Below, piece after piece: positions 957 through 19,903 of a stretch of DNA of 25,058 bases; within the stretch, counting starts at the first letter, position 1, and each line of letters begins with the position of its first letter. The notes beneath the pieces are model-generated. The model had not been told where the DNA came from, did no database searches, and worked only from the letters and a program-made list of their open reading frames with translations. Source of the DNA: a virus (Duplodnaviria; Heunggongvirae; Uroviricota; Caudoviricetes); IMG/VR virus record IMGVR_UViG_2698536646_000002. One strand, written 5' to 3'. The position numbers and the translations under genes are program-made.

Positions 957-1150
957 GAGGTTGCCCTGTATTCAGTGTCGCTGATTTGTATTGTCTGAAG
1001 TTGTTTTTACGTTAAGTTGATGCAGATCAATTAATACGATACCTGCGTCATAATTGATTATTTGACGTGGTTTGATGGCGTAGATGCACGTTGTGACATG
1101 TAGATGATAATTATTATCATTTTGCGGGTCCTTTCCGGCGATCCGACAGG

Positions 1151-1172
1151 TTACGGGGCGGAAGGCGCGCGG
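1151..1172 (+). other. cosN (terminase nicking site, cohesive-end region), variant sequence
   Basis: TTACG-GGGCGGAAGGCG-CGCGGGTTTTCGC lines up with lambda ...CAGGTTACG|GGGCGGCGACCT|CGCGGGTTTTCGC. The flanks are identical; the 12-nt overhang region differs at its last 6 positions (AAGGCG here, CGACCT in lambda). Confidence 0.7.
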
Positions 1173-1207
1173 GTTTTCGCTATTTATGACAATTTTCCGG
1201 TTTAAGG

Positions 1208-1320
1208 CGTTTCCGTTCTTCTTCGCCGTAACCTAATGTTTTTATTTAAAACACCCCCTGAAAAGAAAGGAAACGACAGGTGCTGAAAACGGGCTTTTTG
1301 GCCTCTGTCGTTTCCTTTCT
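1208..1320 (+). promoter_or_regulatory. cosB: Nu1-binding elements R3 (1208-1219), R2 (1264-1275, inverted), R1 (1309-1320) with an AT-rich IHF-type site I1 (about 1229-1251)
   Basis: CGTTTCCGTTCT at 1208, AGAAAGGAAACG at 1264 and CGTTTCCTTTCT at 1309 match the lambda R-element consensus CGTTTCC(T/G)TTCT. Spacing and orientation are as in lambda cosB, directly upstream of Nu1. Confidence 0.7.
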
Positions 1321-1344
1321 CTGTTTTTGTCCGTGGAATGAACA

Positions 1345-1864
1345 ATGGAAGTCAACAAAAAGCAGCTGGCTGACATTTTCGGTGCGAGTATCCGTACCAT
1401 TCAGAACTGGCAGGAACAGGGAATGCCCGTTCTGCGAGGCGGTGGCAAGGGTAATGAGGTGCTTTATGACTCTGCCGCCGTTATAAGATGGTATGCCGAA
1501 AGGGATGCTGAAATTGAGAACGAAAAGCTGCGCCGGGAAGTTGAAGAACTGCGGCAGGCCAGCGAGACAGATCTCCAGCCAGGGACTATTGAGTACGAAC
1601 GCCATCGACTTACGCGTGCGCAGGCCGACGCACAGGAGCTGAAAAATGCCAGAGACTCCGCTGAAGTGGTGGAAACCGCATTCTGTACTTTCGTGCTGTC
1701 GCGGATCGCAGGTGAAATTGCCAGTATTCTCGACGGGATCCCCCTGTCGGTGCAGCGGCGTTTTCCGGAACTGGAAAACCGACATGTTGATTTCCTGAAA
1801 CGGGATATCATCAAAGCCATGAACAAAGCAGCCGCGCTGGATGAACTGATACCGGGGTTGCTGA

Positions 1865-1890
<26 letters not shown>
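1345..1890 (+). CDS. nu1: Terminase small subunit Nu1
   Basis: 181 aa, near-identical to lambda Nu1 as recalled (MEVNKKQLADIFGASIRTIQNWQEQGMPVLRGGGKGNEVLYD...). N-terminal winged-HTH. Lies immediately downstream of cosB. Confidence 0.97.
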
Positions 1891-5805
<3,915 letters not shown>

Positions 5806-14817: not shown

Positions 14818-15258
14818 TGCAGGATATCCGGCAGGAAACACTGAATGAATGCACCCGTGCGGAGCAGTCGGCCAGCGTGGTGCTCTGGGAAATCGATCTG
14901 ACAGAGGTCGGTGGAGAACGTTATTTTTTCTGTAATGAGCAGAACGAAAAAGGTGAGCCGGTCACCTGGCAGGGGCGACAGTATCAGCCGTATCCCATTC
15001 AGGGGAGTGGTTTTGAACTGAATGGCAAAGGCACCAGTACGCGCCCCACGCTGATGGTTTCTAACCTGTNNNNNNNNNNNNNNGACCTATCGCGGCGATG
15101 AGTGCGGTTATCACGGTCCGGCGGTCGCGGATGAATATGACCAGCCAACGTCCGACATCACGAAGGATAAATGCAGCAAATGCCTGAGTGGCTGTAAGTT
15201 TCGCAATAACGTCGGCAACTTTGGCGGCTTCCTTTCCATTAACAAACTTTCGCAGTAA
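14817..15258 (+). CDS. L: Tail tip protein L (interrupted by a 14-N assembly gap; internal sequence missing)
   Basis: N-terminus MQDIRQETLNECTRAEQSASVVLWEIDL... and, after the gap, C-terminus ...TYRGDECGYHGPAVADEYDQPTSDITKDKCSKCLSGCKFRNNVGNFGGFLSINKLSQ both match lambda gpL. The apparent length is well short of lambda's 232 aa (about 260 nt missing), so the N-run understates the real gap. Confidence 0.85.

Positions 15259-16633: not shown

Positions 16634-19903
<3,270 letters not shown>

Follow-up and report, generated by a model that had tools for sequence, protein, structure and literature searches.

A natural right-half variant of the lambda cosN cohesive end that recurs in Escherichia coli genomes

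A 25,058-nucleotide virus sequence (IMG/VR record IMGVR_UViG_2698536646_000002, Caudoviricetes; this whole stretch is called the window here) holds a cosN site that stands next to lambda-like packaging genes and departs from lambda within the cohesive end itself. This raises the question whether the difference is an error of a draft assembly, the mark of a site that is no longer cut, the sign of a terminase with another specificity, or an ordinary natural allele. The segment corresponding to the overhang (window 1156-1167) reads GGGCGGAAGGCG, whereas bp 1-12 of lambda (NC_001416) read GGGCGGCGACCT. With its closest neighbours the segment is TTACG GGGCGGAAGGCG CGCGG (window 1151-1172), and a re-reading of this interval confirmed both its coordinates and its sequence. 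Over a longer distance, window 1147-1180 is CAGGTTACG GGGCGGAAGGCG CGCGGGTTTTCGC, and lambda, joined across its ends, is CAGGTTACG GGGCGGCGACCT CGCGGGTTTTCGC; on either side of the overhang, positions -16 to -1 and +13 to +34 match lambda without exception.

The original prediction described six contiguous changes among the 12 positions. A position-by-position comparison gave 5/12 mismatches (bp 7, 8, 9, 10 and 12) and 7/12 identical positions, one change fewer, because C11 is the same in the window and in lambda. The other shared bases are bp 1-6 (GGGCGG). The predicted confinement of the changes to the right half of the overhang stands, and the right-half hexamer is AAGGCG in the window compared to CGACCT in lambda. 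Around cos, we counted 21 mismatches to lambda in 255 aligned bases, with a background divergence of 6.4%. At this background, five mismatches within one hexamer have a probability of ~6e-6 per hexamer and ~1.6e-3 over the region, so that the cluster is not a product of chance but a genuine block as opposed to scattered divergence. The alignment to the lambda cos region, which had been proposed as a check, confirmed the block as real against NC_001416. Symmetric positions in the 22-bp cosN fall from 10 in lambda to 8 in the window allele, and the 5-bp replacement also abolishes the G3/C10 symmetry pair.

All parts of a lambda-like cos site that can be judged from sequence under the definition of Feiss, namely overhang, CG flanks, cosQ, cosB and terminase genes, were found in the window (Table 1). 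The CG dinucleotides outside the two putative nick sites (1154-1155 and 1168-1169) are the same as in lambda. The distance between cosN and R3 is also that of lambda, with no indel between them, and the interval between R2 and R1 shows a 1-nt deletion. The sequence flanking the nick region, R3, Nu1 and A are lambda-like, as had been predicted; for the rest of cosB, the R2 and R1 cores are present and I1 carries the substitutions listed in Table 1. The description of the terminase as near-identical to that of lambda was likewise accurate, since besides the Nu1 differences (Table 1) only five residues differ in the readable part of gpA (~99% identity). With differences at bp 7-12 only and otherwise lambda-like packaging machinery, the window site is a natural right-half variant.

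Table 1. Elements of the cos region and adjoining terminase genes in the window
Feature	Window coordinates	Strand	Remarks
cosQ, GGGTCCT	1126-1132	+	Packaging-termination element; identical to lambda 48473-48479, spacing to cosN as in lambda
cosN core, CG-GGGCGGAAGGCG-CG	1154-1169	+	16 bp; nick positions placed by homology to lambda
Overhang, left half	1156-1161	+	Identical to lambda; half in which mutations such as G2C impair cleavage (PMC4669245)
Overhang, right half (variant block)	1162-1167	+	bp 7, 8, 9, 10 and 12 changed, C11 kept
R3	1205-1220	+	Nu1 (TerS) site nearest cosN; identical to lambda bp 50-65; extent after PMC9026076
I1 (IHF) region			Between R3 and R2; five substitutions relative to lambda (lambda bp 71, 73, 78, 97, 102)
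R2	1258-1278	-	Inverted R repeat; core GGAAACG at 1269-1275; boundaries approximate, by lambda homology
R1	1306-1322	+	R repeat; core CGTTTCC at 1309-1315
Nu1	1345-1890	+	Small terminase, 181 aa; 3 aa differences from lambda
A	1865-4024	+	Large terminase (gpA), lambda-like; reading frame holds a scaffold artefact at 3392-3624

The window sequence is a draft scaffold in which three runs of N mark gaps (3392-3539, 15070-15083 and 18913-18933). In gene A, the artefact comprises 148 N followed by an exact copy of 3180-3265 and adds 78 codons in frame, and the gap begins directly after gpA codon N509. The A gene of a complete-genome relative, APEC E14033, is uninterrupted (1926 nt) and continuous across the gap point, which identifies the additional sequence in the window as a product of scaffolding or gap closure and not as a real insertion. 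The run at 15070-15083 replaces ~270 nt of the tail protein gene L (~aa 85-175 missing), and the run at 18913-18933 replaces ~250 nt of gene J (~aa 760-843 missing). Downstream of the gap, J shares only 67% identity in its C-terminal part with J of PhiR46_1, a phage-plasmid described below. The cosN block lies 2.2 kb from the nearest run of N.

The distribution of the allele was determined using a 46-nt junction query centred on the cosN block, for which megablast seeds only if the block itself matches. Based on this query, the variant allele was present in 159/5,426 complete E. coli genomes (170 places), and the corresponding query for the lambda-type allele matched 4,481 complete E. coli genomes (8,401 places). 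This amounts to ~2% variant and ~97% lambda-type alleles among the lambda-flanked cos sites of complete E. coli genomes. Sequences retrieved from five matching records showed the identical 12-mer behind differing upstream DNA. In PLSDB, we detected the variant allele in 24 plasmid records of E. coli, Shigella sonnei, E. albertii and E. fergusonii, and two phage records (YDC107_1 and PhiR46_1) carry it as well. IMG/VR contributed 76 cos-like loci with the variant 12-mer, all of which have CG flanks by construction of the search pattern; 33 of them have lambda-type flanks. Across these 76 loci, the cosQ-cosN spacer occurs in at least 17 versions, and the cosB-side sequence falls into three classes. 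A search of GTDB species-representative genomes with the lambda-flank pattern returned six matches, which were discarded as chance occurrences in unrelated environmental MAGs and genomes that are no cos sites. In the full text of the literature, the exact 12-mers and their reverse complements appeared only within unrelated primer or gene sequences; the variant allele was not found in open full text, and a dedicated survey (Vahanian et al. 2017) may list it.

Other alleles were sought in IMG/VR among lambda-flanked sites with a base other than T at bp 12. The resulting 49 loci carry GGGCGGAAGGCG (33 loci), GGGCGTCAGGCG (13 loci) and, at one locus each, GGGCGGCAGGCG, GGGCGTCAGACG and GGGCGGCGACCG; of these, GGGCGGCAGGCG is one step from each of GGGCGGAAGGCG and GGGCGTCAGGCG. 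The allele spectrum is therefore discrete, with ~97% lambda type, two alleles with five differences and one intermediate among the 49 non-T12 loci. Such a spectrum, with almost no intermediates, is not what would be expected from simple neutral drift at six free sites.

The third allele, GGGCGTCAGGCG, was found in 61 complete E. coli genomes and includes G6T, a change in the supposedly conserved left half. At most loci with this allele, cosB is a different one, the TerS-like gene has only 35% identity to Nu1, and no large terminase gene is adjacent; at the one locus that was read further (L126), remnants of E and FI lie downstream. These loci are defective prophages or satellite-like elements. 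A separate set of 15 IMG/VR loci combines the window allele and lambda bp 13-44 with the unrelated sequence TTCCGGGGAAAATCATGTCGG in place of R3, and has a distinct cosQ-cosN spacer that is one base shorter. They may be satellite cos sites or belong to another packaging specificity.

Among the carriers, PhiR46_1 (PV340565) is a deposited complete phage genome with E. coli ECOR13 as its host. This linear phage-plasmid is N15-like (telL/telR, ParA/ParB, primase) and carries a full and intact lambda-type Nu1-A-W-B...J-Lom-Stf module beside the variant cos allele; judging from its record, it probably forms infectious particles. YDC107_1 is classified in Ravinvirus, the genus of N15, and pAH01-1 is a further carrier. 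Similar non-mobilizable PLSDB records are mostly ~42-48 kb in size and come from the same four species. No record in the phage collection begins with the variant 12-mer, and a search for direct virion-end mapping in a phage with the variant allele found none.

Next to the allele itself, we compared the large terminase between 17 IMG/VR loci with the variant allele and 34 lambda-type loci, all of which encode a full-length lambda-like gpA. At the 17 variant-allele loci, gpA has its full length of 641 aa and is 98.8-99.5% identical to that of lambda. No gpA column separates the 17 variant-allele loci from the 34 lambda-type loci, and four Nu1 protein sequences are common to both groups. Only N9D and S21A of gpA are partly associated with the variant allele in this comparison. 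Both sit in the N-terminal region of gpA closest to cos, and their association is best read as linkage; co-adaptation between gpA and the allele was considered and not detected among the 17 and 34 loci. The substitution L404R (window 3073-3075, codon 404) is present in the window and at 2/17 variant-allele loci, and at 0/34 lambda-type loci. It lies three residues from D401, an endonuclease-centre residue of lambda gpA.

Published work offers a framework for how such a site would behave. Lambda-like phages commonly depart from lambda within bp 7-12, the cited examples being N15 and phiD326 (bp 9 and 12) and Gifsy-1 (bp 8, 9 and 11) (Feiss et al. 2015, PMC4669245). Together with mEp213/LLS (PMC12315714), these cases contradict the original prediction that a clean block at this place is unexpected. 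Cleavage at cos was not measurably affected by changes in the right half (Xu & Feiss 1991; Hang et al. 2001, via PMC4669245), and many mutations at bp 7-12 have a minimal phenotype while symmetric changes in the left half are severe (PMC4669245). For instance, G2C lowered the yield about tenfold and the change C11G had no effect (Xu & Feiss 1991, via PMC4669245). The asymmetry of cosN hinges on cosB being close by (Hang, Catalano & Feiss 2001, via PMC4669245), and bottom-strand nicking tolerates base changes because Nu1 bound at cosB positions gpA (PMC4669245). cosQ is highly conserved, and the CG flanks are conserved as well (PMC4669245). These tolerance data span changes of single or few bases and the 2-bp N15 allele, whereas the window allele is a 5-bp replacement.

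Under the R3-anchoring model, for which the spacing between cosN and R3 is critical (PMC9026076), Nu1 at R3 places the gpA protomer responsible for the bottom-strand nick, which falls between bp 12 and 13 and is therefore largely insensitive to the bases at bp 7-12. The elements that matter, all of them conserved in the window, are cosQ, the left half of the overhang, both CG flanks and the distance to R3. By analogy with the published genetics, we infer that the terminase would cut the window site normally, generating 12-nt 5' overhangs with a left end of 5'-GGGCGGAAGGCG and a right end of 5'-CGCCTTCCGCCC. The site appears ordinary because only bases with little or no reported effect on cleavage are changed. 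Taken together, we read window 1126-1345 as part of an E. coli lambdoid prophage and as its complete lambda-type cos site, followed by Nu1 and A. In this reading, to which we assign a probability of roughly 0.85, the site carries a recurrent natural allele and is cut normally.

Three other readings of the block itself have to be weighed against this one. The gapped scaffold, with one run of N beside an artefactual duplication in A and two runs in place of parts of L and J, invites the suspicion that the block arose through faulty sequencing or assembly of a low-quality draft and that the true sequence is that of lambda. The same 12-mer with its flanks recurs, however, in the 159 independently assembled complete E. 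coli genomes, the 24 plasmid records, the 76 IMG/VR loci and the two phage records, and the nearest run of N is 2.2 kb away. Since the identical 12-mer is found in many independent complete genomes, the window allele is not an error of its own assembly, and this explanation is effectively refuted. The allele could also mark a dead site, its carriers being decaying prophages that are no longer cut and packaged; most instances are indeed prophages, and some IMG/VR variant-allele loci have no R3 or no adjacent large terminase gene. Yet the 12-mer stays invariant beside spacers of at least 17 diverged types, a pattern unlike that of decay, and full-length gpA and Nu1 genes accompany the variant allele. 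Its carriers, moreover, include N15-like phage-plasmids of ~46 kb from four species as well as a deposited phage whose propagation host is named, and changes in the right half are tolerated according to published genetics (PMC4669245). No evidence of inactivity was found, and the suggestion in the original prediction that the site may be inactive for packaging is thus unlikely to hold, given that the unchanged allele occurs in 159 complete E. coli genomes and in phage-plasmids from four species, and that it adjoins intact 641-aa gpA genes.

The allele might instead be paired with a terminase of co-evolved nuclease specificity and so define a separate cosN specificity class. L404R, so close to D401 and present in the window and at 2/17 variant-allele loci, would be in keeping with this; but 15/17 of these loci have L404 as in lambda, no gpA position distinguishes the groups, and N9D and S21A are best attributed to linkage. 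As the terminases of lambda and N15hy4 also show no cosN specificity (PMC4669245), we regard a separate specificity class as highly improbable. A further idea, which does not compete with the explanation of how the site is cut, concerns what happens after cutting: the discrete and deeply diverged alleles CGACCT, AAGGCG and T-CAGGCG could be end-compatibility groups, in which a chromosome packaged between unlike cos sites cannot cyclise and dies. The allele spectrum is discrete and not graded, and even a 2-bp mismatch lowers the yield about fourfold (PMC4669245). Calculated duplex energies are -18.6 kcal/mol for variant/variant and -19.0 kcal/mol for lambda/lambda ends, whereas the best variant/lambda cross-duplex retains only the 6 bp GGGCGG (-9.5 kcal/mol). 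Variant overhangs would accordingly pair with each other as stably as those of lambda do, but not fully with lambda-type ends, which makes the original prediction that these ends could not anneal with those of lambda a reasonable one. For cyclisation of the phage itself this poor pairing does not matter, as its two ends derive from a single duplex site. Import of short tracts from diverged lineages combined with drift could, however, give the same pattern, and we consider the idea of compatibility groups tentative and improbable. If it were true, the groups would lead to positive frequency-dependent selection, with rare alleles selected against, and would partly restrict exchange between prophages and phage-plasmids that reside in the same cell, with rare allele transfers via the 12-nt heteroduplex.

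The origin of the block was also considered. AAGGCG occurs twice, at window 1162-1167 and at 1204-1209 on the edge of R3 (lambda bp 49-54). Copying from the latter was rejected as a source, as the flanking bases do not match; one 6-mer match within ~200 bp has a chance expectation of ~5%, and the repeat is probably a coincidence. A simple inversion of the lambda block was rejected as well, because CGACCT has the reverse complement AGGTCG and not AAGGCG. The block is sharply bounded by bp 7 and bp 12, and these bounds would mirror the limits of the positions that are free to vary. Exchange of alleles without flanking DNA may proceed through the 12-nt heteroduplex of annealed mismatched ends: chromosomes with mismatched ends were found to be viable, with both alleles segregating after replication, as shown for the 2-bp difference between lambda and N15 (Feiss et al. 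2015, PMC4669245). By analogy, this route may be an additional path of allele exchange here, where five mismatches stand against the two of the precedent.

Overall, the window allele is a natural allele within the published class of right-half cosN variants, real but ordinary. Its mechanistic weight is small, as it fits the published view that lambda terminase does not read bp 7-12; the population data extend this picture of tolerance to a five-base replacement. In practical terms, annotation and terminus-prediction tools that seek the exact lambda 12-mer will miss ~2-3% of the lambda-type cos sites in E. coli, and cos ends of the lambda type will neither anneal with nor be ligated to DNA from phages with the variant allele. 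From the standpoint of population genetics, the existence of a few discrete alleles is a modest curiosity.

Compared to the lambda cos site, the window site shares cosQ, the CG flanks, bp 1-6, bp 11 and bp 13-34, R3 with its distance, and the R2/R1 cores, and it differs at overhang bp 7, 8, 9, 10 and 12, at five positions of I1 and by the 1-nt deletion between R2 and R1. Engineered right-half mutants of lambda, for example C11G, affect the same region as the window block and show little or no phenotype (PMC4669245), because terminase anchored at cosB makes the bottom-strand nick whichever bases are present there. Such mutants change one or few bases, whereas the window allele changes five at once; in the open literature, we found no test of the five-base allele. 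Gifsy-1 (bp 8, 9 and 11; PMC4669245) and mEp213/LLS, with the inferred end GGGCGGCGCGCT (bp 9 and 10; PMC12315714), are natural right-half variants too, at other positions and with fewer changes, and their terminase and head modules are more diverged from lambda than those of the window. The end of N15 and phiD326, GGGCGGCGTCCG, which differs from lambda at bp 9 and 12, is likewise a right-half variant and has T12G in common with the window allele. It differs from the latter at bp 7, 8, 9 and 10, has two changes instead of five, and in N15 works with a simple cosB and a TerS of its own, in contrast to the Nu1 and cosB of lambda in the window. In experiments, this N15 allele was cut equally well by lambda TerL (PMC4669245).
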